Part shown: positions 2,981 to 34,977 of the stretch, piece after piece
Position numbering within the stretch: the first letter of the stretch is position 1
Layout of the letters: each line of letters starts with the position of its first letter
Virus record (IMG/VR): IMGVR_UViG_3300017766_003544
Span: 1-35,774 of that record
Direction: 5' to 3' (one strand)
DNA: 35,774 nt
Origin: a virus
Taxonomy: Duplodnaviria > Caudoviricetes
The notes under the pieces: generated by a model
Database searches by the model: none
Told to the model about the DNA's origin: nothing
The model's input: only the letters and a program-made list of their open reading frames with translations
Translations under genes and position numbers: made by a program

Positions 2981-3115
2981 TATCTTGGTTGTAAATGATG
3001 GGGCTCACCGCCCGCGTTGCTTGCATCCATCCATGTCATAAAATCCCCGCCTAACAAAAGGAACTCCGATTGCTGCCAAAAACTGCCCACAGCTCACGCT
3101 ACACACACAGTAAAA

Positions 3116-4114
3116 TCAGGCCGCTCGCCGACTCTCAAAGCTCACCACATTCCCAGGCAACGGCAGCACATCCAGCGGACTCGTGATCGACTCCGCGAAC
3201 CTCGGCACACAATGCAGATACACCTGCGTCGTCTCCACCGAGTTATGCCCCAGCAGCTCCTGCACCTGCGTAATACTTGCCCCACCCGCCAGCAGATTCG
3301 TCGCGAAAGAATGCCGCAGCGTGTGGGCCGTCACCCGCTTATGCAGCCCCACCTTCCTCGTCGCCAGCTTCAGCGCCTTCCCCAACGTATCCTCATGCAC
3401 ATGATGCCGGCGCACGATGCCCGTGCGAGGATCAGTGCTCTCATTCATCGCAGGCCACAGCCAGAACCACGGCCACTCCCTTCCCCCATTCGTAAACTTC
3501 CGCTCCAGTCCATCCGGCAGAAAGATCGCATTCGCACCCGCAGCACGGTCCCGATCATACACAACACGCACCCGCTCAAAATGAGCATGCAGCCGATGCA
3601 CCAGAGACCGAGGTAGCACCGTCACCCGGTCCTTGTCCCCCTTACCCCCGCGCACCGTCACCAGACACGCCTCCAGATCGATGTCCTTCACCCGCAGCGC
3701 CAGCAGCTCCGCCACGCGCAGCCCCGAACCATACGCCAGCTCCGCCATCAGTCTCGTCCCCGCAGGCATCACCGCCAGCAGCCTTTGCATCTCCTGTGGA
3801 GACAGCCATGTCGGCAGCCGCTTCGGACGCTTCGCCCTCGCCCACTTCCCCAGATCCCCCAGCGGCTCCCTCACCACATCCCGATACAGAAAAACAATCG
3901 CATTCAGAGCCTGATTCTGAGTCGATGCCGAGCACCTCGGAGCCAGCTTCTCCAAAAATGTCCTCACCCTCTCCTCACGCGGCTGATGCCCACAAGCCTT
4001 CACATGCGCCCCAAAACGAGCGATCCACCCCGCATAAGTGACCTCAGTGTGCCTCGAAAGCCTCCGAATCCGGCAGACCATCCGCACCTGCTCAAGCATC
4101 TCGTCGAGTTTCAT
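3116..4114 (-). CDS. intI: Integron integrase (IntI-family tyrosine recombinase)
   Basis: SASTQNQALNAIVFLY, RLPTWLS, YGSGLR, GGKGDKDR, the IntI-specific insertion (LPDGLERKF...WPWFWLWP...DPRTGIVRRHH), HTLRHSFAT and LLGH...TTQVYLH. All catalytic R-K-H-R-H-Y residues are present. Confidence 0.95.
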   Translation of the reverse strand: MKLDEMLEQVRMVCRIRRLSRHTEVTYAGWIARFGAHVKACGHQPREERVRTFLEKLAPRCSASTQNQALNAIVFLYRDVVREPLGDLGKWARAKRPKRLPTWLSPQEMQRLLAVMPAGTRLMAELAYGSGLRVAELLALRVKDIDLEACLVTVRGGKGDKDRVTVLPRSLVHRLHAHFERVRVVYDRDRAAGANAIFLPDGLERKFTNGGREWPWFWLWPAMNESTDPRTGIVRRHHVHEDTLGKALKLATRKVGLHKRVTAHTLRHSFATNLLAGGASITQVQELLGHNSVETTQVYLHCVPRFAESITSPLDVLPLPGNVVSFESRRAA

Positions 4115-4135
4115 AAGTTTCCGTTTTTCACCTGT

Positions 4136-4172
4136 CTATCTGGAAAGTTGTTCGGGATAATCACTGTTCGGC
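4136..4172 (+). other. attI: attI-like recombination site A (crossover G|TT at 4166/4167)
   Basis: CTATCTGGAAAGTTGTTCGGGATAATCACTGTTCGGC lies just upstream of intI, the canonical attI position. GTTCGGCAG is the exact complement of CTGCCGAAC at the first attC. 32/34 nt identical to 32721-32754. Confidence 0.8.
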
Positions 4173-4405
4173 AGATACATGAAGCTTGGGTAGGCCGTTC
4201 CTATCAAATCTTCCACCCGACAATGCCACTCATCGAGTTCGTGAGATTTTGCCCATGCCTCCATGATCGGCTCAACCAGCACGAGGATTTCCAGCATAGC
4301 CTTTTCTCGGCACGCGCAGGCGTGGTGGTGAGTTGCGCCAACTGCCGAACAAGGCGAGGCAGCGCAACCCTCAGGAGCGGGCAAGTTTGTTTTTGGATCA
4401 GGCAT
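4136..4405 (-). CDS. Cassette 1 hypothetical protein (starts in attC1, ends in attI-A)
   Basis: 89 aa ORF. ATG at 4405 is inside attC1 and overlaps the upstream stop. The tail NSDYPEQLSR* is encoded by attI. Confidence 0.7.
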   Translation of the reverse strand: MPDPKTNLPAPEGCAASPCSAVGATHHHACACREKAMLEILVLVEPIMEAWAKSHELDEWHCRVEDLIGTAYPSFMYLPNSDYPEQLSR

Positions 4406-4446
4406 CTAGGGCGCTCCTTTCGGGTTGCTGCTCTTTTGCGTTCGCC
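4344..4446 (+). other. attC: attC site 1 (103 bp)
   Basis: R'' GCCGAAC, 5 nt, L'' GAG(G)CAGC ... L' GCTGCTC, 6 nt, R' GTTCGCC. The stem extends (CAACCC/GGGTTG, AGGAGCG/CGCTCCT). Confidence 0.88.
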
Positions 4447-4745
4447 TCAACAACTCGCGTCCAATGGATCGCCATGAAGTCGAGCAAGTGGTTTCCATCA
4501 TCTCCTATCGTTGACCGTCCCGCAGCTTTCGCCGCACGCCGTTGCAGGTTGATGCAGTCGTTTATCGTGGCGCGGAGGATGATGTGCGCGTCCAAGTCGT
4601 TGCCTTCCGGTCCGCACGCTGGCCACGGCTCGCACCATTGGAGCATCGTTTCATGCCGGGATTCCAGCAAGGCGAACAAGGCAGTGGACTCAACGCTGAC
4701 CGCGTTGGAGTCCCCCGTGTTTTCAATGTCTTCTTTCGCGGTCAT
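4398..4745 (-). CDS. Cassette 2 hypothetical protein (starts in attC2, ends in attC1)
   Basis: 115 aa. ATGA overlap at 4742-4745 inside attC2. The tail NAKEQQPERSALDA* comes from attC1. Confidence 0.7.
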   Translation of the reverse strand: MTAKEDIENTGDSNAVSVESTALFALLESRHETMLQWCEPWPACGPEGNDLDAHIILRATINDCINLQRRAAKAAGRSTIGDDGNHLLDFMAIHWTRVVEANAKEQQPERSALDA

Positions 4746-4769
4746 CGTGAGTCACTTTTATCGTTCGCT
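4671..4769 (+). other. attC: attC site 2 (99 bp)
   Basis: R'' GGCGAAC (complement of cassette start GTTCGCC), 5 nt, AGT(G)GACTCA(A)CGCTGACCGCG ... CGCGGTCATCGTGAGTCACT, 6 nt, R' GTTCGCT. Two extrahelical bases. Confidence 0.92.
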
Positions 4770-5014
4770 AAGGAGATTTTTACCGAGACATCCAGCACCG
4801 GCTGGAATCCCTTGATGTATTCGAGGAGGTGGTATCTTTCCGCCCATCCCTCCAGCCTGCCGGGACTCAGCATTTCGGAACCATCAGCACAGGATGCGAC
4901 ATCTGCATGGATAGCCTTGCGAGCCTGAGATTCAGAATCGAAAGGACCAAGCGGGTCTTGCTCTCCCCACTCTTGCGGGGTCTTTCCCCGCATTACATAG
5001 ATTGATCGTTTCAT
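4742..5014 (-). CDS. Cassette 3 hypothetical protein (ends in attC2)
   Basis: 90 aa with an AT-rich start context. The tail NDKSDSR* comes from attC2. Confidence 0.7.
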   Translation of the reverse strand: MKRSIYVMRGKTPQEWGEQDPLGPFDSESQARKAIHADVASCADGSEMLSPGRLEGWAERYHLLEYIKGFQPVLDVSVKISLANDKSDSR

Positions 5015-5024
5015 AAAAATAAAC

Positions 5025-5077
5025 CGCGAACAGGTCAGTCCACCGAACGCTCCGCGCCGGTGACTTTTGCGTTGTGC
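5025..5077 (+). other. attC: attC site 3 (very short, 53 bp)
   Basis: R'' CGCGAAC (6/7 complement of GTTCGCT), 5 nt, L'' AGT(C)CACC ... L' GGTGACT, 5 nt, R' GTTGTGC. Confidence 0.78.
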
Positions 5078-5265
5078 GAATCCATGAACTCGATCTCCGG
5101 TTTCTCGGCGCGCATTTGGCGATACTGCAACTCGACTCGTAGTGAGCCGATGACCACAGCAGCAGCGCGACTGATAGCCATTGCTTCCTCCGCGCTGATG
5201 CTTTTGTTTTCGAGTGCGGCCACGGTCGCGCTCATTTTCTCTCTGAGTGTGTTGATGTTCGTCAT
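5035..5265 (-). CDS. Cassette 4 gene b, small helical phage-type hypothetical protein (ends in attC3)
   Basis: 76 aa. ATGA overlap with gene a. The tail NAKVTGAERSVD* comes from attC3. Confidence 0.72.
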   Translation of the reverse strand: MTNINTLREKMSATVAALENKSISAEEAMAISRAAAVVIGSLRVELQYRQMRAEKPEIEFMDSHNAKVTGAERSVD

Positions 5266-5687
5266 ATTGTTTTGATTCTGGTTCCTAGTTTCCTGCTGAG
5301 TTTGATGTGCTCGCGTTTGATTTCGATTAATGCCTTGGGACAGTCTTCGACTTTCATGTGCAGGTAGCGGTTTGCCACGACGCTATCGGGCAGATTCTCT
5401 ATGTCCTTCCTCGCCTTGCGCTTCACAGCCACTGCTGTCCTTTTTGGTTTCCGAATCTTGCGTGGGTGGTTGGATGGTAGAACCGCCCACCGTTCACGTT
5501 CTGCTTTTCTCTCCACGTCCCTGATGCCTGCCATTGCTCGCCTTTGGCGCTGCTTTTCCATCCTCGCTGCCCATCGGCTTGGATCGGCCTTGATAGCGAC
5601 ATACCACGCAGGCAACGCACAACCAGACGGTGATGCCAAGCCATTCGCGGCGGGCTGCATTGGTGATAGTGCGTCAGGGGCGCTCAT
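5262..5687 (-). CDS. Cassette 4 gene a, basic phage-type hypothetical protein (starts in attC4)
   Basis: Lys/Arg-rich ORF. ATG at 5687 forms an ATGA overlap with the parB-like stop (alternative start 5696). Confidence 0.7.
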   Translation of the reverse strand: MSAPDALSPMQPAANGLASPSGCALPAWYVAIKADPSRWAARMEKQRQRRAMAGIRDVERKAERERWAVLPSNHPRKIRKPKRTAVAVKRKARKDIENLPDSVVANRYLHMKVEDCPKALIEIKREHIKLSRKLGTRIKTI

Positions 5688-5711
5688 GGCTGGCATACCT
5701 CGGCGTCCACC
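5617..5711 (+). other. attC: attC site 4 (95 bp), terminal site with non-canonical R' GTC
   Basis: R'' GCACAAC (complement of GTTGTGC), 5 nt, GGT(G)ATGCCA(A)GCCAT ... ATGGCTGGCATACC, 5 nt, GTCCACC. Confidence 0.82.
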
Positions 5712-7111
5712 CGCCCCTCCAAACCCGCCACATCCACCCCCAGCTCGCAGAGCAGCCCGCCCAACGCCGCACGCAGCTCCTCACGCGACTCCGCCGCATC
5801 AGCAGCCAGCACCATCAGCAGCACCATCACCTGGCGCAGTTGCCATCTCTGGCTTCGATCCTTCGCCAGCCAGCCGCGCAACTCATCCGCCGACGCCATC
5901 CCCAGCCAGGCCGACACCGCCCCCGCGTCCACATCCGTCGCCAGATGCACCAGCAGCTCATGAAAGCACTCCCACGGCGGCCCTGTCATCGCATCCGTCG
6001 GATTCGCCTTCAGGTGTTCCCAAAGCGCATTAAACATCACCTTCATCCAGCGGCCATCCACATCGTCCGCAGGAGCAGAGGCAGACGCACGCTCCAGCGA
6101 TGGACCATCCCCAGCATGCACCGTCACCTCCCTCTCCGCCACCGGCTCCGACTCCGGCACCTCCGCAGCCTCCACCGACTCCGCATCGCGCAGCATCTTC
6201 TTCGACACCAGTAGCACAAACCTATCATCACGCCGCGGCGCAGGCACCACATACACCGGCACCCCCAGCCCCTTCGCCTTCTCCTGCCACTGCCTGCCAT
6301 CCGCATCACGCGGCATGTAGCCATCGCCAAACTCATAGTCAGGCCACGGCTGCCCCGACTCCCCCTGCACATACTCCCCACGCTGACCCCACTCCACAAA
6401 GTGATACCCATCCGCCACCGGATACTTCTTCATCAGCACACCCACCAGCCGCAGCCAGGCCGCCAGCCACTTCTTTGGCTGCACATACTTCGCCTGGATC
6501 GCCGCCTCAGCCGCCTTGTAGCTCAGCGGCTCATTGCCCACCGCATCACAAAGAACCATCTGGAGAGCCCCGCGCATCTCCTCCCCGCGATCCAGCGGCA
6601 GCAGCAGCTCCGCCACATGCAGAGAAAGCCGACCATCCGCCAGCGCCTCGCGCCCTTGCTGCGGCAGCATCTCCCCCAGGTCAAAGAAGAGCTGCACCCG
6701 CTCCACCGACCGACCCAGCGCCGGAGCCAGATCCCCCACCGTCATCCCCATCCCCACGCCCACCTCCACCGCAGTCACCAGCTCCTCCGCATTCAGCGCC
6801 ACCGTGTGCCCGTGATCTTGCAACAAATAAAGGTAGGCATCCCCCTCATCGTCAAACTGGTGGACCACCTGGAGACACCCCCCCCAGCCCAGCTCCTTCA
6901 TCCCCGCAAAGCGGCGGTGCCCCTTCAGAAGAAAGTCCCCCTCCTCCCGCTCCCACACATGGATCGCATCCTGGAGCCCATTCGCCCGCAGAGATTCCAC
7001 CATCTCAGGGATGCCCTCATAGACCCCCTGCCGAGGATTCGCGCTCCACTCCCTCACCCGGCCCAGCGATCTCATCACCGGCCCCGTCATCGTATGTTTA
7101 TTGTCGTTCAT
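5684..7111 (-). CDS. ParB/Srx N-terminal domain protein
   Basis: NPR...SLRANGLQDAIHVW...LLKGHRRF motif followed by an HTH-like segment (VGDLAPALGRSVERV). The start may be 7156. Confidence 0.8.
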   Translation of the reverse strand: MNDNKHTMTGPVMRSLGRVREWSANPRQGVYEGIPEMVESLRANGLQDAIHVWEREEGDFLLKGHRRFAGMKELGWGGCLQVVHQFDDEGDAYLYLLQDHGHTVALNAEELVTAVEVGVGMGMTVGDLAPALGRSVERVQLFFDLGEMLPQQGREALADGRLSLHVAELLLPLDRGEEMRGALQMVLCDAVGNEPLSYKAAEAAIQAKYVQPKKWLAAWLRLVGVLMKKYPVADGYHFVEWGQRGEYVQGESGQPWPDYEFGDGYMPRDADGRQWQEKAKGLGVPVYVVPAPRRDDRFVLLVSKKMLRDAESVEAAEVPESEPVAEREVTVHAGDGPSLERASASAPADDVDGRWMKVMFNALWEHLKANPTDAMTGPPWECFHELLVHLATDVDAGAVSAWLGMASADELRGWLAKDRSQRWQLRQVMVLLMVLAADAAESREELRAALGGLLCELGVDVAGLEGRVDAEVCQP

Positions 7112-7152
7112 CGTTAGAAAAAAAGTTTGTTGTTGTTCATTACCCCGCCCCA

Positions 7153-7947
7153 TCAAATCCCCAGCCGTCTCCGCTCCGCCTCCTCCGCCAGCCCTTGCAG
7201 CTTCCGCCGCAGTTGCAGCGGACTCAGCCCGCGAAACTCCGCCCGCACCGGCACCCCATGCACCAGCTCCTCATGCTCGCGCCTCAGAGCCTCACGCACA
7301 CACACCGGCAGATCCTCCTCCTCACTCGCCTTGCGATTCGTGTTCCCCATCTGCGCCACCTCACAGCGCCGACGCGTCACCCGCTTCTTCGCAAACCAAA
7401 ACTCCGTCAGCCCCATCTCATCGTGCATATCGCGTAGCTGGGACTTCTCCACCACGCCCCGCACCACTGCCTGCATCGCCGCACACACCGCCGAGCGCGG
7501 ATTCCGCGCCCGCAGTCCCCACAGCTTCCCGATCGCCTCAAAGCTCGGCAGCGCCGCCCGCACCACCGGCCCGCGCTCATACGCATACGCCAGCAGAGAC
7601 ACCCGGCGGCCCAGCGCCAGTGCCTCACTTAAACCTCCGGTAATCATCTCCACCACCTGTCCGCGATCTTCAAAAGTCGCATCAGCCACACCAATGTGCA
7701 GATAGTCCCAGCACAAGGTAGAAACCACATGCAGCTCCTTCCGAAGTTTCGCCCGTGTTGGCGGCAGACATCCCGGCATAAGACGCTCACACAGCAGCCA
7801 TGCGCGCAGCCCCATCTCTTTCAGCGAGCACGCATCCACCACACAGGCCACCAGCACCTGGCTAAAAAGCGTCACCCGTGCCGACCTCTCCCCAGCCCCG
7901 TCCACACGGGACGAGTCCAGCGCCGCAATGTCATAGAATTCGTTCAC
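7153..7947 (-). CDS. Hypothetical early protein
   Basis: GTG start overlapping the upstream stop. Part of the coupled operon. Confidence 0.6.
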   Translation of the reverse strand: MNEFYDIAALDSSRVDGAGERSARVTLFSQVLVACVVDACSLKEMGLRAWLLCERLMPGCLPPTRAKLRKELHVVSTLCWDYLHIGVADATFEDRGQVVEMITGGLSEALALGRRVSLLAYAYERGPVVRAALPSFEAIGKLWGLRARNPRSAVCAAMQAVVRGVVEKSQLRDMHDEMGLTEFWFAKKRVTRRRCEVAQMGNTNRKASEEEDLPVCVREALRREHEELVHGVPVRAEFRGLSPLQLRRKLQGLAEEAERRRLGI

Positions 7948-8228
7948 GCCGCCACCTCCTCGCCCGCACGTCTTTCCCAAAGTTCCATTACCGGCTGGAG
8001 CGCCGCCCTCTGCCGCTCCGCCTCCTGCTGATAATTTCGCGCCAGCGCCATCCCCGTCCGCACCGCAGGCATCTCCGTCTCGATCAGCTCCGTCATCTCC
8101 TTCGCCGTCACCCCCGGCTTCAGCAGCGCATCCGCCACCATCCGCAGCACCATCGCCTGCTGCTCCCGCTCACGGCGCGCACGCACCATCAGCTCCTCCG
8201 GCTTGAAGTTAAAAAGATTCCCACTCAT
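7944..8228 (-). CDS. Hypothetical early protein
   Basis: 94 aa, helical, 4-nt overlaps on both sides. Confidence 0.65.
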   Translation of the reverse strand: MSGNLFNFKPEELMVRARREREQQAMVLRMVADALLKPGVTAKEMTELIETEMPAVRTGMALARNYQQEAERQRAALQPVMELWERRAGEEVAA

Positions 8229-8800
8229 AGCTTCCAGCCCTCCCCCTTCAGCCTCTCAAAATTCCGCTCGATCCGGTCCAGCGACACCTCACGCAGAGAC
8301 CCCGCCAGTCCACGACCCCGCCCCATCGCCCGCATCAGCGCCGAATGCGCCGTGCAGTCCGCATCATAGAAGGCCCGCACAAAACCACGCTGCGCCTTCG
8401 CACGCTCCCACATCACCACCAGCGCCGCCTGCCGGTCATAGCGTGCGTCCAGATCCTTCTGCGCCTTCTGCTCCTTGTCCGCACGGCGCACCGCCGCCGC
8501 CTTCGCCAGCGCCGCATGCAGCAGACCATGCCGGCCACGCGTCGCATAGCTCCGCTGCCCCATCGTCCGGCGCGGCGTCTTCACACCCTCCTCCTCATCA
8601 TCCTCAGCCTCCACCGCCTGATCAAACTCCGGGTCATACATCCCCCGGCGGTAGAGTGCAAAGTCCAGCAGCTTATGCTCATAGCCGCCCACCGTCGGCA
8701 TATGCTCCCACGTCCGCCCATTAAACGTCTGCTCCCAGGCCTCACAGCCAGGCCGCGCCGACTTGCGGATCACCTTCGTGATTCGAGTTCCCGCGATCAT
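8225..8800 (-). CDS. Hypothetical early protein
   Basis: 191 aa, ATGA overlaps on both sides. Confidence 0.65.
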   Translation of the reverse strand: MIAGTRITKVIRKSARPGCEAWEQTFNGRTWEHMPTVGGYEHKLLDFALYRRGMYDPEFDQAVEAEDDEEEGVKTPRRTMGQRSYATRGRHGLLHAALAKAAAVRRADKEQKAQKDLDARYDRQAALVVMWERAKAQRGFVRAFYDADCTAHSALMRAMGRGRGLAGSLREVSLDRIERNFERLKGEGWKL

Positions 8801-9174
8801 GCCAGCACCTCCTTCTCCTCGGCACTCATCGCCAGCATCGCATCACGCCGCGCCCGTTGGGCCAGCGTCAGCTTCACATTCGGCTGATCCATCAGCCCCC
8901 GGCACCACAGCCAGAAGTTCATCGCCCGCACATCATCAGCCCCCGACACCGATGGCATATCCCGCCACGTAAAGCCCCGCACCTTCCCCATCGCGTCCAG
9001 CTTCTGAGTGCATTCCCTCGGCAGCCAGCTCGACTCTGGCGACCACACCATCACCTTCCCCTTCCGCCGCTCCGCAGGGTAGCGAGTCAGCACCGGCTTC
9101 GATCTCGAATCCGCCACCACGCCCCCCGCAGCCAAAGCCCGCGCCACCATCCGCCGAAGATCCGCCGGACTCAT
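8797..9174 (-). CDS. Hypothetical early protein
   Basis: Start MSPADLRR at 9174 gives an ATGA overlap with the upstream gene. Confidence 0.6.
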   Translation of the reverse strand: MSPADLRRMVARALAAGGVVADSRSKPVLTRYPAERRKGKVMVWSPESSWLPRECTQKLDAMGKVRGFTWRDMPSVSGADDVRAMNFWLWCRGLMDQPNVKLTLAQRARRDAMLAMSAEEKEVLA

Positions 9175-9386
9175 CGAGCACCCCCTTTCATCACCGCAAA
9201 GTCCACACAAGCCCCGGCCAGCGCCAGCGCCCGGTTGATCTCCACCAGCTTCTCATCATCCAGAGCCAGAGACACCGTCTCCGCCCCCTCAAACATCACC
9301 GCCATCAGCACCCCCGATGCCGAATGAATCGTCACCGAGATCCGCTCCCCCGTTTGGGGTCTCACTGTTTCAAAATCGTCCATCAC
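9171..9386 (-). CDS. Hypothetical early protein
   Basis: 71 aa, preceded by GGAGGAG, overlapping both neighbours. Confidence 0.6.
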   Translation of the reverse strand: MMDDFETVRPQTGERISVTIHSASGVLMAVMFEGAETVSLALDDEKLVEINRALALAGACVDFAVMKGGAR

Positions 9387-9691
9387 AGTCTCCTCCTCCG
9401 TTTGGTTGTTCCATTGCTAAACCCCTCAGCCGCCTGGACATCCGCCACCATGTAGGTCGCAAACGCACCACGCGTCCCCTTCATCGGCTTCAGACCCCGC
9501 GCCCGGCACCGCTTCGCCAGATTATCCAGCCGCAGCTCCAGCGTCTCCCCCGGCACCACCCAGCGCCGCATCAGCTCCTCCGCCGTCAGCGGGCGCGACT
9601 GCCCCGCCGGTGACAGCACCGCCGCCACCGCCTCAATCAGCGACCGCAGCCCCCGCACCTCCTCGGTGAGTTGTTCCAGAGTCGCACTCAT
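9383..9691 (-). CDS. Putative DNA-binding / excisionase-like protein
   Basis: Start MSATLEQL at 9691. PLTAEELMRRW...GLKP...TYMVADV resembles a winged-HTH Xis/MerR pattern (inference). Confidence 0.45.
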   Translation of the reverse strand: MSATLEQLTEEVRGLRSLIEAVAAVLSPAGQSRPLTAEELMRRWVVPGETLELRLDNLAKRCRARGLKPMKGTRGAFATYMVADVQAAEGFSNGTTKRRRRL

Positions 9692-9828
9692 CGGCACAGC
9701 GCCCCTCCCAGCAAAGCCAGCATCACATGCACCAGCACCAGAAGCATCGCACAGGCCCACGGCACCGCCGCATCCGTCAGACACAGCGGCCCCTCCAGCC
9801 ACAGGCAAAAAGCACGCACCCACCTCAT
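9688..9828 (-). CDS. Small membrane protein
   Basis: 46 aa from ATG 9828 with a hydrophobic C-terminal half. ATGA overlaps on both sides. Confidence 0.45.
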   Translation of the reverse strand: MRWVRAFCLWLEGPLCLTDAAVPWACAMLLVLVHVMLALLGGALCR

Positions 9829-10016
9829 GGCCGGGACACCTCCAAAACTTGCGCCTGATAGCGCAGGCACGCCCGGTGGATGTGCCCCACCACATGCAGC
9901 GCCCACCCCGCCAGAGCAGACAGCACCAGCAGCATCACCACACGCCCCAGAAAGCGGCGCACACCACCCCCACGGCGCGGCTCGCACCGCGTCAAAGTCG
10001 AAGCCAGCGTCATCAT
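9825..10016 (-). CDS. Small membrane protein
   Basis: Hydrophobic segment VVMLLVLSALAGWALHVV. Coupled to both neighbours. Confidence 0.55.
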   Translation of the reverse strand: MMTLASTLTRCEPRRGGGVRRFLGRVVMLLVLSALAGWALHVVGHIHRACLRYQAQVLEVSRP

Positions 10017-10327
10017 GGCCGGTGCGCCCCTCCCAAGCCCTTACGCACCAGCAGCGCCCGCAGATCCCGAGGCGCAGGCGGAAAGCTCGCAGCTTGTAGT
10101 TCGGGCTTCAGCCCGTTCTGACTCTCCACACTCAGATGCTCGTCCTGCCAAGCCCGCAGCCTCGCCGCCCCCGCCTCCAGATAATCCCCCACACGGGAAC
10201 TCGCATTCCCCCCACCCGCAGCCGCCCCACTGGCAGACACCCGTCTGTCCGATGCCGAGCGCCCCATCGGTTGCGCCTGCCCGGCCCCCCGTCTTCTTCT
10301 GTTCGTGTTTTGATTTTCGTAGATCAT
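10013..10327 (-). CDS. Hypothetical early protein (contains a REP-like repeat in frame)
   Basis: GGAGG upstream. The peptide ESQNGLKPELQA is encoded by the 34-bp repeat. Confidence 0.5.
   Translation of the reverse strand: MIYENQNTNRRRRGAGQAQPMGRSASDRRVSASGAAAGGGNASSRVGDYLEAGAARLRAWQDEHLSVESQNGLKPELQAASFPPAPRDLRALLVRKGLGGAHRP
10092..10125 (+). repeat. 34-bp GTAG-type REP-like palindrome, copy 1
   Basis: GCTTGTAGTTCGGGCTTCAGCCCGTTCTGACTCT, identical to 11906-11939. GTAG is followed by the hairpin CGGGCT-TC-AGCCCG. Confidence 0.8.
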
Positions 10328-10393
10328 CGTCTTCCTCCGTGTCTTCGTTGTTGGTTGTGCCGCAGAGCCCCTGCGGTGCGGGATTGTAAAAAA

Positions 10394-10564
10394 TCAGGCC
10401 AGCTTCAGCACCTCGCGCAGCCCGTTGCGCACATCGCAGAGCCGATCCACAATCGCTCCCTGCTCCCGGTTCAGCTCCTGAGTCTCCGGCATTGCCGCCA
10501 GCTTCTCAGCCACCAGCGCCATCATCGCCGCCATTGCCGCCCGCTCCTGGGTTGTCAGTTTCAT
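10394..10564 (-). CDS. Small hypothetical early protein
   Basis: MKLTTQERAA..., helical, second gene of the early operon. Confidence 0.6.
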   Translation of the reverse strand: MKLTTQERAAMAAMMALVAEKLAAMPETQELNREQGAIVDRLCDVRNGLREVLKLA

Positions 10565-10595
10565 AAAGGTCAGTGAGGTCAGTGAGGTCAAAACT

Positions 10596-10778
10596 TCAGG
10601 CCGCCGCCAGTTGGCTAACTAGGACCTTCAGCCCCCGCTCCAGAGAGAGTCTCATCACATCCTGCTTAGAGAGATTCGTGGATCTCGATGCCTCATCGAT
10701 CTTGGCATCCAGATCCGTCGAAAGGCGGACTGGGACGCTCACTGATTCAGGTCTTCTTGGGCTCGTTTTCTTGCTCAT
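10596..10778 (-). CDS. Ribbon-helix-helix (Arc/CopG-like) Cro-analogue
   Basis: SVSVPVRLSTDLDAKIDEASRSTNLSKQDVMRLSLERGL fits the RHH pattern. First gene after the leftward promoter. Confidence 0.75.
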   Translation of the reverse strand: MSKKTSPRRPESVSVPVRLSTDLDAKIDEASRSTNLSKQDVMRLSLERGLKVLVSQLAAA

Positions 10779-10784
10779 GGGAAC

Positions 10785-10839
10785 CACTGTATGCAAAACG
10801 CATACAGTGTCAACAAAAATGTGTGCAAAGTTTATACAT
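10785..10839. promoter_or_regulatory. Divergent immunity switch: leftward sigma70-type promoter plus operators
   Basis: Minus strand TTGACA(10813-10808)-16 nt-TACAGT. A perfect inverted repeat CACTGTATGC-N5-GCATACAGTG (10785-10809) overlaps it, with a related degenerate copy at 10819-10839. Confidence 0.75.
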
Positions 10840-10854
10840 AGGCTATTCTAAGCC

Positions 10855-11211
10855 ATGAGCACACCCAATACCGTCTCGTTCCCCGTGCGTATGCCCGCAG
10901 ACCTGAAAGCACAAATATCCGCACTCTCGATCAACCTCGGCATCTCAGAGCAGGACACCATGCGCCTCTGTCTTCGAATCGGGTTAACCGACATCGAATC
11001 CATTAAAAAGGATCATTCCGCACTGGTCAAAGAAGCTGCTGACGAGTGCGGCTCCAGCTTCGCAAGCTGGGCTAAAAACAAAAGCGCAGCAAAAACCAAA
11101 CTTCCACCCATCAAGCCCCAGAACTCAGGCAAGGTCTATGAGTTCCCATGCGATAGCGGCTTGAAAGTTGCCGACGAACACAACAAAGGCGCAGGCTTCG
11201 ACGGCCTCTGA
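10855..11211 (+). CDS. Ribbon-helix-helix repressor (CI analogue)
   Basis: TVSFPVRMPADLKAQISALSINLGISEQDTMRLCLRIGL, paralogous to the divergent RHH gene. Confidence 0.72.
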   Translation: MSTPNTVSFPVRMPADLKAQISALSINLGISEQDTMRLCLRIGLTDIESIKKDHSALVKEAADECGSSFASWAKNKSAAKTKLPPIKPQNSGKVYEFPCDSGLKVADEHNKGAGFDGL

Positions 11212-11233
11212 CATCGCCTAACCATCACCCCAC

Positions 11234-11267
11234 AAAAAAAGCCGAGGCTCATCACCTCGGCTTTTTT
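11234..11267. terminator. Bidirectional intrinsic terminator
   Basis: A7-GCCGAGG-CTCATCA-CCTCGGC-T6 between convergent genes. Confidence 0.88.
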
Positions 11268-11722
11268 CATTTCAACGGCACACGACAGGCCGGGCAGAGC
11301 CGCGACCTCGGTGCCACAGAATTACCGCACCTTCCGCAGGTCATCACATAGCTCGTATGATCGATGATCAGCGCCGCCACGATCAGCAGCAGCCCCACCG
11401 GCCAGAATAAAATCAGCATCACCAGACCTAACAGAAAACAAAACATCGCCCCGCATCCGCTCCCCTTGCTCCGGCGCTTCTTTCTCACCGGAGCCATCTG
11501 CAACGTCGGCGGGATAAAAGCAGGCTCCCGGCCTGCCTCCATCTCACAGGCAGCCAGCTCATCATCCAGCCCATACCACACCTCCTCCCCTTGGCGGCAC
11601 ACCAGCGCCTCCGCCGTCACAGAGCCAGCCTCATGCATCTTCTGGAGCTGCCCCAAAGCAAACGGCCCCTCAGCATCAGCATCTGGGGTGCGGCAAAGCC
11701 AGTAAGTAGTCGGCAAATTCAT
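11267..11722 (-). CDS. GYF_2 (DUF4339)-like membrane protein with C-terminal zinc ribbon
   Basis: EGPF.L.QL..M...G......LVCRQG...W motif, two TM helices, CGRC...CPAC. Confidence 0.7.
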   Translation of the reverse strand: MNLPTTYWLCRTPDADAEGPFALGQLQKMHEAGSVTAEALVCRQGEEVWYGLDDELAACEMEAGREPAFIPPTLQMAPVRKKRRSKGSGCGAMFCFLLGLVMLILFWPVGLLLIVAALIIDHTSYVMTCGRCGNSVAPRSRLCPACRVPLK

Positions 11723-32720: not shown

Positions 32721-32757
32721 CTATCTGGAAACTTGTTCTGGATAATCACTGTTCAGC
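32721..32757 (+). other. attI: attI-like recombination site B (crossover G|TT at 32751/32752)
   Basis: CTATCTGGAAACTTGTTCTGGATAATCACTGTTCAGC, 32/34 identical to site A. GTTCAGCAAAAT is the exact complement of ATTTTGCTGAAC at attC5. Confidence 0.8.
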
Positions 32758-33094
32758 AAAATACGAGCGCCTCGCCCTTCTCGGCGGTTGCTTCCATGTC
32801 GTCCGCGAGTTCGAGCGCGTTTTGTTTGTCGTGACCGTCGGGCCAGTCCGCCACGAGTTCGCGGAGTCTCGGCGCGACACGCTTGCATTCCTCTGGCGTC
32901 ATTTCGCCTTCGCAGTCGGAGTGCATGAGCAGCGGCGCGATGCCGTCGGTGATTTTGTGCCACGGTCTTTCCGGTGGCCCGAAGCCCGCCATCTCGCGGA
33001 GGTTCATACCGATTTCCGCAGCGAGCCGACACCGGAAGGCGTTGAAGCCGGAGTATGACCACTGCGCGTTTGATTGTCTGAATGCTAGTCCCAT
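32753..33094 (-). CDS. Cassette 5 hypothetical phage protein (HSDCEGE motif)
   Basis: MGLAF...WSYSGFNAFR.RLA...LLMHSDCEGEM. The TGA stop overlaps the core site. Confidence 0.78.
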   Translation of the reverse strand: MGLAFRQSNAQWSYSGFNAFRCRLAAEIGMNLREMAGFGPPERPWHKITDGIAPLLMHSDCEGEMTPEECKRVAPRLRELVADWPDGHDKQNALELADDMEATAEKGEALVFC

Positions 33095-33100
33095 AATTTT

Positions 33101-33192
33101 GCTGAACAAGACGCTGGACCGAAAGTGGCGGGCCGCGTCATTTTTGTTTTCGTGAGTTGCCGACCGCCACTTCGGTCAGCTTTTCGTTAAAT
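33101..33192 (+). other. attC: attC site 5 (92 bp)
   Basis: R'' GCTGAAC, 5 nt, GCT(G)GACCGAA(A)GTGGCGG ... CCGCCACTTCGGTCAGC, 5 nt, R' GTTAAAT. R' overlaps the terL TAA stop. Confidence 0.92.
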
Positions 33193-34977
33193 GAAGCCGG
33201 GGACGAGGCGGGCGATCCAGAGCGCGATGAGGCCGAGCTTGGAGCAGTCGCCATAGTGGTCGTGGGGGACGCGTTTCCACTGGTTGGTGGACTTGTCCTT
33301 CATCTGGCCGGTGTGGCCCATGATGAGGGAGGCATCAGCATCGCTCGGGAGGTGGAAGCCGGGGGTGCTGCGGCGGGCGATGCGGGAGCCGTAGAGGTCA
33401 TCCTTTGCCTGGGTGTCTGAGTAGGTGTAGAGCTTCAGGCCGGGACGGGAGGCGGCGCGGGTTTCGTTGACGGTGCCGTGCTTGGCGTCGCTGCCTTTGG
33501 TTGGCCAGTAGAAGCCGCCGGAGGCTTCGCAGATGTCATACTGTGTCTCGGTGAGGTAGCCGGAATCAATGTAGCCGATGCGGGGGACGATGCGCTCATC
33601 GGTGCCGGGGATGGTGTAGAGGCGATGGCGGAGGAAGTCGGCGGAGACGAGCTCGCGGGAGCTGAGGAGGGTGCCCCAGTCAATGACGAAGAGTCCGCCT
33701 TCGGGAGAGATGGCGGTGACGGTCCAGTGAGTGAGTGCTTCGCCGGGGTCGGCAGTGAGGACGAGGAGCTTGGGCCGGAAGGGCAGGGAGCCGCGCCCGT
33801 AGTCGGTGGAGATGCAGGCTCGGACGGTTTCCTCTTTGATGTTATGGGCGAGGTCGGACCAGCAGTTGGCGAGCCATGAGTTTGCGTGGTTTTGATGGTT
33901 GCCGAGGAGGTCGGCGGGCTTGATGCGGTTCCAGGCGACATCGCCGAAGGTGAGGGCGGGGGAGTAGAAGGACGGGAGGCGAAAGGATTTGTTTCGCTGG
34001 GCGGTGGCGGGGTTGAGGTCGATGGGCTCGACGCGGTCGAGCATGGGGAGGCGGTCTTCTTCGCGGATGGGGTAGGCGCAGGAGGGGCAGATGTAGCGGA
34101 TGGTTTCGCGGACTTTTTGTTCGACCCAGAGGCCGTGGGAGTCGCGGGAGTCTGGGGACCAGACGAGGCTGCGGTAGTCGCTATCGACTTTCTCGTAGCC
34201 GGGGTGTTTGGAGTCGTGGCTTTTATCGGGCCAGTCTTCGAAGGGGAAGAGGTGCTGACATTCGGGACAGGAGACGAGGAAATGAGTTTGTGATCCGGCT
34301 TCGTAGCGGGTCCAGAAAGGGTGCGTGACAATGTTTGGGGACGAGCTTTTGTAGCGGAAGGCGTCGGGGCCGAAGGACTTGGCACGCTCGTCGGCGAGGT
34401 CCATGGGGTGCGCTTCGGGGCTGTCTTCGTTGGAGTGGTGCTCAAATTTGCAGCACTCGTCTTGAAAAATATCGCGTTCGGAAGTGGAGGCGAGGTTGGC
34501 GGGGGAGTTGGTGCCGGTGAGGCGGATGGCTCCGCCGAGCATGTCCATCTCCATATCCGTGAAGTGGTCGGAGTTGGCGGGTTTTCGCTCGGAGAGGATG
34601 GGGTTGAGATTGATGAGGGGCTGGAGTTTTTTTCTGGAGACGGCTTTTTGGGCGGTGTCTTTGGTTGGGAAAACGATGAGCTTTGGGGAGGGGACGTTGA
34701 CCATCCGGTAAACGAGCATCATGAGGAGGCCGAAGGTCTTGAAGACCTGGGTGGCGGAGCAGGTGGTGACGTCGGTGATGCCACGGGCGGGGTCGGCGCA
34801 TTCGAGGATGTGCTGGGCGAAGCCTTGATGCTGGAGGCTGAAGGGGGCCATGGCTCCATGGACGCGGGCCGGGGACATGGAGCGGGGGATTTGAATATGC
34901 CGACTGAGGAACTCGACCACGGCGGGGCGCTGCTCAACCAAGGCGAGGCGCAGGAGATGGGCGCGGCGGTCACTCAT
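33187..34977 (-). CDS. terL: Terminase large subunit (lambda GpA family)
   Basis: SATQVFKT (Walker A variant), IFQDE (Walker B), SSP, CPEC...CPSC, FRLPSFYSP, IDSGY, KGSD and HYGDC motifs. Confidence 0.92.
   Translation of the reverse strand: MSDRRAHLLRLALVEQRPAVVEFLSRHIQIPRSMSPARVHGAMAPFSLQHQGFAQHILECADPARGITDVTTCSATQVFKTFGLLMMLVYRMVNVPSPKLIVFPTKDTAQKAVSRKKLQPLINLNPILSERKPANSDHFTDMEMDMLGGAIRLTGTNSPANLASTSERDIFQDECCKFEHHSNEDSPEAHPMDLADERAKSFGPDAFRYKSSSPNIVTHPFWTRYEAGSQTHFLVSCPECQHLFPFEDWPDKSHDSKHPGYEKVDSDYRSLVWSPDSRDSHGLWVEQKVRETIRYICPSCAYPIREEDRLPMLDRVEPIDLNPATAQRNKSFRLPSFYSPALTFGDVAWNRIKPADLLGNHQNHANSWLANCWSDLAHNIKEETVRACISTDYGRGSLPFRPKLLVLTADPGEALTHWTVTAISPEGGLFVIDWGTLLSSRELVSADFLRHRLYTIPGTDERIVPRIGYIDSGYLTETQYDICEASGGFYWPTKGSDAKHGTVNETRAASRPGLKLYTYSDTQAKDDLYGSRIARRSTPGFHLPSDADASLIMGHTGQMKDKSTNQWKRVPHDHYGDCSKLGLIALWIARLVPGFI

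Follow-up and report, generated by a model that had tools for sequence, protein, structure and literature searches.

A phage integron whose back-to-front cassette genes mostly cross the recombination sites in a fixed reading frame

We analysed a single contig of 35,774 bases (the window, i.e. the whole stretch of DNA under study) belonging to a tailed temperate phage. It carries an integron with cassette genes encoded on the other strand from those of cellular integrons, and in phage integrons of this type the AAC core of the recombination sites is mostly read as an asparagine codon. The sequence comparisons below make it probable that this fixed frame is a stop-and-restart convention, which would keep the operon translatable in any cassette order. 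The frame rule itself is real but conditional on crossing, i.e. it concerns those genes that run through the core.

Matches to PHROGs in the window comprised a terminase, a portal, a major head protein, a primase and a phage integrase. The integron integrase gene, intI (3116..4114, minus strand, 332 aa), was the last gene 3' of the cassette genes, on the same strand, and its product scored 331.8 bits against TIGR02249 (cutoff 265) in an NCBIfam profile search. R133, K158, H264, R267, H290 and Y299, which we take to be the catalytic-type residues of IntI, were all present and were invariant in 10 relatives. Of the 80 genome-collection loci listed, one from a Verrucomicrobiaceae assembly matched best (L190, IntI 76% identical), which points to a verrucomicrobial bacterium as the likely host of the window's phage. 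The L190 contig, probably a prophage, contained a reversed array of six sites (3053-5910). In another locus (L026, 5960-6460), intI had suffered a large internal deletion, while a two-cassette array was still there.

All cassette genes of the main array lay on the minus strand, which is the attC bottom strand, and ran toward intI. Going upstream from intI came the inferred attI (4115..4172, crossover G at 4166) and then attC cores at 4440, 4763, 5071 and 5705. The stop provided by attI (4136-4138) stood 21 nt before the intI start. An attI-like site 21-52 nt upstream of intI was conserved in the loci, where 12 variants were found, 11 of them with a stop after 10 codons in the core-codon frame. 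Cassette 1 (4167..4440, 274 bp) held a gene (4136..4405, minus strand, 89 aa) that started within attC1 (4344..4446, 103 nt) and ended in attI. The gene of cassette 2 (cassette 4441..4763, 323 bp; gene 4398..4745, minus strand, 115 aa) started within attC2 (4671..4769, 99 nt), and that of cassette 3 (cassette 4764..5071, 308 bp) occupied 4742-5014 (90 aa; 83 if the second ATG is the start). Cassette 4 (5072..5705, 634 bp) contained two ATGA-coupled genes, one (5262-5696) starting in attC4 (5617..5711, 95 nt) and the other (5035-5265, 76 aa) crossing into attC3 (5025..5077, 53 nt). The far boundary of the array was a ParB-like backbone gene (5684..7111, minus strand; start uncertain, the ORF extending to 7156), which crossed the non-canonical GTC core of attC4 as Asp. 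The stop of the arriving gene overlapped the ATG of the next one in attC1 (stop of gene 2, ATG of gene 1, 8 nt overlap), in attC2 (ATGA, 4742-4745) and in attC4 (ATGA, 5684-5687), but not in attC3, which contained the stop of the 76-aa gene, the next start being just outside. The four sites folded as hairpins, their R'' matched the start of their own cassette at 7/7, 7/7, 6/7 and 7/7 positions, and integron-type attC features (R''/R' cores, L boxes, extrahelical base) were present. A general repeat finder did not have the attC sites of the window among its listed repeats, and a loose scan for inverted cores was too noisy, so that a structured finder was used instead. NCBIfam and PHROG assigned no family to the five main-array cassette proteins.

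The original prediction had listed five junctions at which the core triplet is one in-frame codon, and re-reading them gave identical results: LP-N-SDYPEQLSR at attI (core G at 4166), EA-N-AKEQQPERSALDA at attC1 (core at 4440), LA-N-DKSDSR at attC2 (core at 4763), SH-N-AKVTGAERSVD at attC3 (core at 5071) and RV-D-AEVCQP at attC4 (GTC/GAC core at 5705), each followed by a stop. The longest upstream open stretch was in the core-codon frame at each of these junctions (79, 103, 173, 103 and 500 codons), compared with 1-71 codons in the other frames. The crossing ORFs were cargo genes of 76-475 aa on the bottom strand and, as had been proposed, they borrowed their stop from the neighbouring site at all five. 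Counting the second array described below, the window had seven junctions, of which five were crossed, in every case in the core-codon frame, and two were not. The claim that every gene crosses, though right at all five junctions of the main array, was too general, as 40 of the 151 cassette ends surveyed below stopped on their own, and so did 2/2 in the window's second array. The accompanying chance estimate of (1/3)^5 was also overstated, its null being too generous: of 5,854 AAC triplets in the long genes of these phages, 53% coincided with a codon, and the four AAC junctions of the window would be in frame by chance alone with a probability of about 0.09. The significance of the frame rule therefore has to come from a larger sample.

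For this purpose, 158 sites from the window, L001-L109, L110 and L190 were reduced to 151 unique cassette ends, these loci being related and the counts accordingly not fully independent. Sites were identified with our own attC finder, which in 914 kb of shuffled sequence gave 0 hits at a score of at least 17 and, among those with a perfect L box, 2 at 15-16, and genes with our own codon-based caller; together these failed to pick up the window's attC3 and attC4 and admitted a few likely false sites. The cassette gene crossed with AAC as a codon at 91 ends and in other frames at 4; 40 ends stopped before the crossover (38 in other frames), 5 were sense and 11 uncalled. The tabulation that had been suggested as a check thus gave 91/95 crossing genes in the AAC frame, where codon usage predicts 56.6 ± 4.7. 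The figure was 81/84 for clustered sites only and 94/100 with a longest-ORF rule devoid of any codon model. The 13 held-out ends, which came from the 6 attC-containing loci among 42 found by a right-arm motif scan (mostly off-target), comprised 8 of 9 crossing genes in the AAC frame, 3 self-stopping ends and 1 uncalled. The predicted frame convention therefore does exist. R'', where no crossover takes place, showed no bias (phases 23/19/22), and a control set of 72 sites next to cellular-type integrases had 45 sense ends, 20 that were uncalled, 4 that stopped on their own and 3 that crossed (1 frame-matched).

These numbers bear on two other explanations. We consider it unlikely that the fixed frame is left over from cassette formation, or from shared ancestry combined with codon usage, rather than being the result of selection on expression after shuffling. 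Codon usage alone does provide 53%, and related phages share attC families; however, the observed excess amounts to about 7 SD over codon usage, the rule holds with integrases only 40-50% identical to that of the window, R'' is unbiased, and such an origin leaves unexplained why the stop that attC contains in this frame lies beside the next ATG. That the pattern is an artefact of crossing ORFs that are mis-called or untranslated seems highly improbable: while 11/151 ends had no gene call and cassette proteins 1-4 matched no family in NCBIfam or PHROG, all cassettes had homologues encoded in the same frame and two independent calling rules agreed. Furthermore, differences between the cassette bodies of 14 pairs were distributed 107/66/240 over the codon positions, with 179 synonymous and 68 non-synonymous changes. 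This supports purifying selection on the bodies in the called frame, and the third-position excess supports both the frame calls and the translation of the bodies.

The stop-and-restart convention is best seen in the geometry of the sites. Without any use of gene calls, a stop in the AAC frame was found inside 113 of 123 unique phage attC, compared with 77 and 67 for the other frames, while 66 cellular attC had 34/39/31 by frame; Fisher tests on these stop-inside-attC comparisons gave p values of 4e-8, 2e-11 and 5e-10. An in-frame ATG was present inside the attC at 64 of the 112 sites with a called downstream gene and missing at 48. At 43 of these 64 the AAC-frame stop lay between -8 and +12 nt from the ATG of the next gene (14 and 12 in the other frames), and the exact ATGA occurred at 23 sites in the AAC frame, versus 5 and 7. 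Followed back across the crossover, the frame of the downstream gene stayed open in 1/112 cases for the AAC frame, compared with 12 and 11 for the other two. Each attC is located at the 5' end of its own gene, often includes the start codon, and provides the upstream neighbour with a short tail and a stop. Coupling is common rather than universal, 21 of the 64 stops not being close to the ATG and 40 of the 151 ends being without the convention.

In the mechanism that we propose, IntI would excise and insert cassettes through the usual folded bottom strand, and the array would be transcribed from a phage promoter located 5' of the ParB-like gene, not from one within intI. On finishing within an attC, ribosomes would restart on the adjoining ATG. 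The convention would be self-reinforcing, as a gene crossing off-frame would more often read on into, or fuse to, the next one, and the tails would likely be tolerated by-products. A promoter scan of the minus strand gave one candidate (10786-10813, 10 of 12 positions), no more than chance would give (2.1 expected); it faces the long early operon, back to back with a plus-strand gene of 118 aa (10855-11211) that had no family match. A crude scan of 3000-11500 on the plus strand disclosed no sigma-70-like site. For class 1 integrons, the accessible part of one study (10.1101/2024.03.26.586746) indicates that for one cassette downstream expression doubled when translation was prolonged as far as the attC, and that deletion of the attC changed downstream expression in a minority of cassettes only.

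The proposal had also been that similarity between homologues should end at the Asn codon. This was borne out for all four cassette proteins and the ParB-like gene, in which similarity stopped at the Asn or Asp and was followed by variable tails. For the 76-aa protein, the xSHN junction was kept in 45 of 104 matches (the window's own included), with 42 distinct tails of 1-32 residues, and one relative (P0005) bore the tail of the window's second attI; many more distant relatives ended at about 66 aa, tail-less. A subgroup of these proteins (P0079, P0084, P0085, P0088, P0090, P0101) had a different common extension, NPHRGSEF..., ahead of variable ends, possibly another type of junction. For the protein of cassette 1, 23 of 34 matches were read: 12 had the Asn and then differing tails, and 4 were forms of 63-65 aa that had neither the attC-encoded leader nor the tail. 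Relatives P0105-P0117 shared the same core with differing attC-derived N-terminal leaders, implying that the attC sites themselves have been exchanged or separately added. The cassette 3 protein had two relatives, one with the Asn and another tail and one without. In L026, the ParB-like gene (91%) had the same GAC core end, followed by a different attC and the tail D before the stop. We considered this end as that of a native, uninterrupted gene, but with the other attC found there it does not represent a pre-insertion state. Two phages (window 5705; L026 5055-5142) thus have a non-canonical GTC/GAC core at the end of the ParB-like gene, with a different attC after it in each, and this core may be the right half of an ancestral attI, or a lock at the array boundary. 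The GTC core at 5705 departs from GWT, the consensus given for secondary insertion sites in the accessible text of another study (10.1101/2022.09.11.507474).

Entire cassettes were also found beside other neighbours. Cassette 1 was present in L063 with 98% identity over all 274 bp and different neighbours on both sides, and cassette 2 in L270 and L271 with 91-92% over 323 bp, the tails being S and ADGLGRRTLDSE, each followed by a stop; compared with L271, the gene of cassette 2 showed 15 synonymous and 6 non-synonymous changes. Contigs from other sequencing runs broke at the cores or a few bases from them (at attI, 4166-4173), and a 636-nt contig from run X1 spanned exactly 5071-5706, X1 being possibly the source of the window and thus not independent. 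Run X24, recorded as RNA, had pieces of cassette 4 with other neighbours, in contigs that carry no strand or transcription information; runs X19 and X21 are probably DNA. We did not rely on two weak joints, one between attI and cassette 4 in X3 (depth 2, its shorter side having 28 letters), the other the back-joint of cassette 2 in X4. The cassettes thus behave as mobile units bounded by the crossover, with cassettes 1 and 2 whole in new surroundings and contigs breaking at cores, and we infer that IntI drives their movement through these sites.

A further part of the original prediction, namely that the tails tune stability or activity, did not find support. In 15 disjoint pairs of related attC, the tails differed at 25/19/27 sites by codon position, with 8 synonymous and 31 non-synonymous changes; the synonymous share fitted the neutral value of 0.28 (p = 0.37) and tails differed from bodies with a Fisher p of 8e-10, though the pairs were chosen by similarity, only 15 in number, and confounded by hairpin pairing. 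The 83 distinct tails were hydrophilic (hydrophobic residues 15% vs. 25%), with a median length of 12 and a range of 0-145, many consisting of one residue. The tails thus appear to evolve like neutral sequence, and selection on them is unsupported by these comparisons. We therefore regard it as quite unlikely that they are functional, interchangeable modules (e.g. stability tags) and that the frame is fixed so as to sample them. Such a role would agree with the combinatorial nature of the tails (42 on 45 relatives of one protein), with the finding of one tail, DKSDSR, on different proteins in the window, L270 and L271, and with the residues at the tail end (Lys 15/77 and Ala 8/77, versus 4% and 30.5% of 351 backbone genes). 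Against it stand the lack of purifying selection in this small test, lengths that go from 0 to more than 30, and relatives of two cassette proteins that end near the Asn without a tail; the skew in end residues may follow from A-rich ribosome-binding spacers. A broader version, in which phages have made the integron a combinatorial device at the protein level, each attC serving as a translated N-terminal leader and C-terminal tag and one integrase with two attI retagging cargo and the ParB-like backbone to tune stability or activity, seems to us equally improbable. The stop-and-restart convention, with tails as by-products, remains our preferred reading.

The testable features of integrons (IntI, attI, attC hairpins, movement of cassettes as units) were all found, while the canonical layout was not: all cassette genes of the window faced intI and 5/151 phage ends were sense. 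Canonical integrons (class 1 and sedentary chromosomal) share with the present one IntI next to attI, attC hairpins with AAC/GTT cores, cassettes that move as units, and the strand of attC relative to intI. In the portions of the literature on them that were available, however, a gene is followed by its own attC, is driven by Pc and usually has a stop overlapping that attC, whereas here the gene is reversed, starts in its own attC and ends in that of its neighbour. ORF-11 and ORF-18 of attI1 and short ORFs in attC (PMC8876359) likewise cross the crossover, take their stop from the partner and help downstream genes by termination-reinitiation; according to the accessible text they are top-strand leaders of 11-18 aa at one site, while here cargo proteins of the bottom strand cross most junctions, the 76-475 aa genes taking their stop from the site. 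Integrons and CALINs in phage genomes (PMC9892861) also have a phage intI, attI and attC, and phage attC recombination was tested with attI1 and IntI1; the complete integrons were host-type, and the available text of that paper contains neither reversed genes nor a fixed frame. Synthetic protein-coding attC sites (PMC7439510), proposed for module shuffling, are both recombinogenic and coding, but as far as the accessible text goes they are engineered linkers within a protein, while the present ones are natural and change a terminal tail rather than a domain. DUF1874 (PMC5737381) is a different motif, judging by the text available. A literature search, covering few subscription papers, found no account of reversed, frame-locked phage cassettes.

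This layout is an alternative design for an integron that suits tightly packed phage operons: the recombination sites double as stop/start joints. It provides a rule for testing (the frame at AAC and a stop beside an ATG) and explains the variable ends of many small 'hypothetical' phage proteins. Tools that assume a gene followed by its attC will misassign such cassettes. The layout also offers natural protein-coding attC sites, a kind that has been engineered for shuffling, and its back-to-front arrangement is relevant to the question of how cassettes originate.

The single integrase of the window coexists with two copies of attI, the second belonging to a mini-array (32721-33192) that is 28 kb away from intI and lies behind the terminase gene. 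The second attI-like site (32721..32757, core G at 32751) is a near-copy of the first. It is followed by a cassette gene (32753..33094, minus strand, beginning MGLAFRQ...; weak PHROG 11026/19831 matches), whose own TGA stop lies within the core box, in a frame other than the core-codon frame, and by attC5 (33101..33192, 92 nt). A clean tail had been predicted at attC5 in the core-codon frame: the open frame, NEKLTEVAVGNSRKQK and a stop, does exist, but the arriving terminase large subunit gene (33187-34977) ends on the TAA of TAAC and does not cross, so that the tail is unused. Two near-identical attI (5950 and 10590), with cassettes at each, were also found in L016. Finally, within attC5 an ATGA begins an 18-codon ORF (33143-33087, minus strand), whose stop and the real cassette gene's start overlap; this ORF is a possible translational relay.
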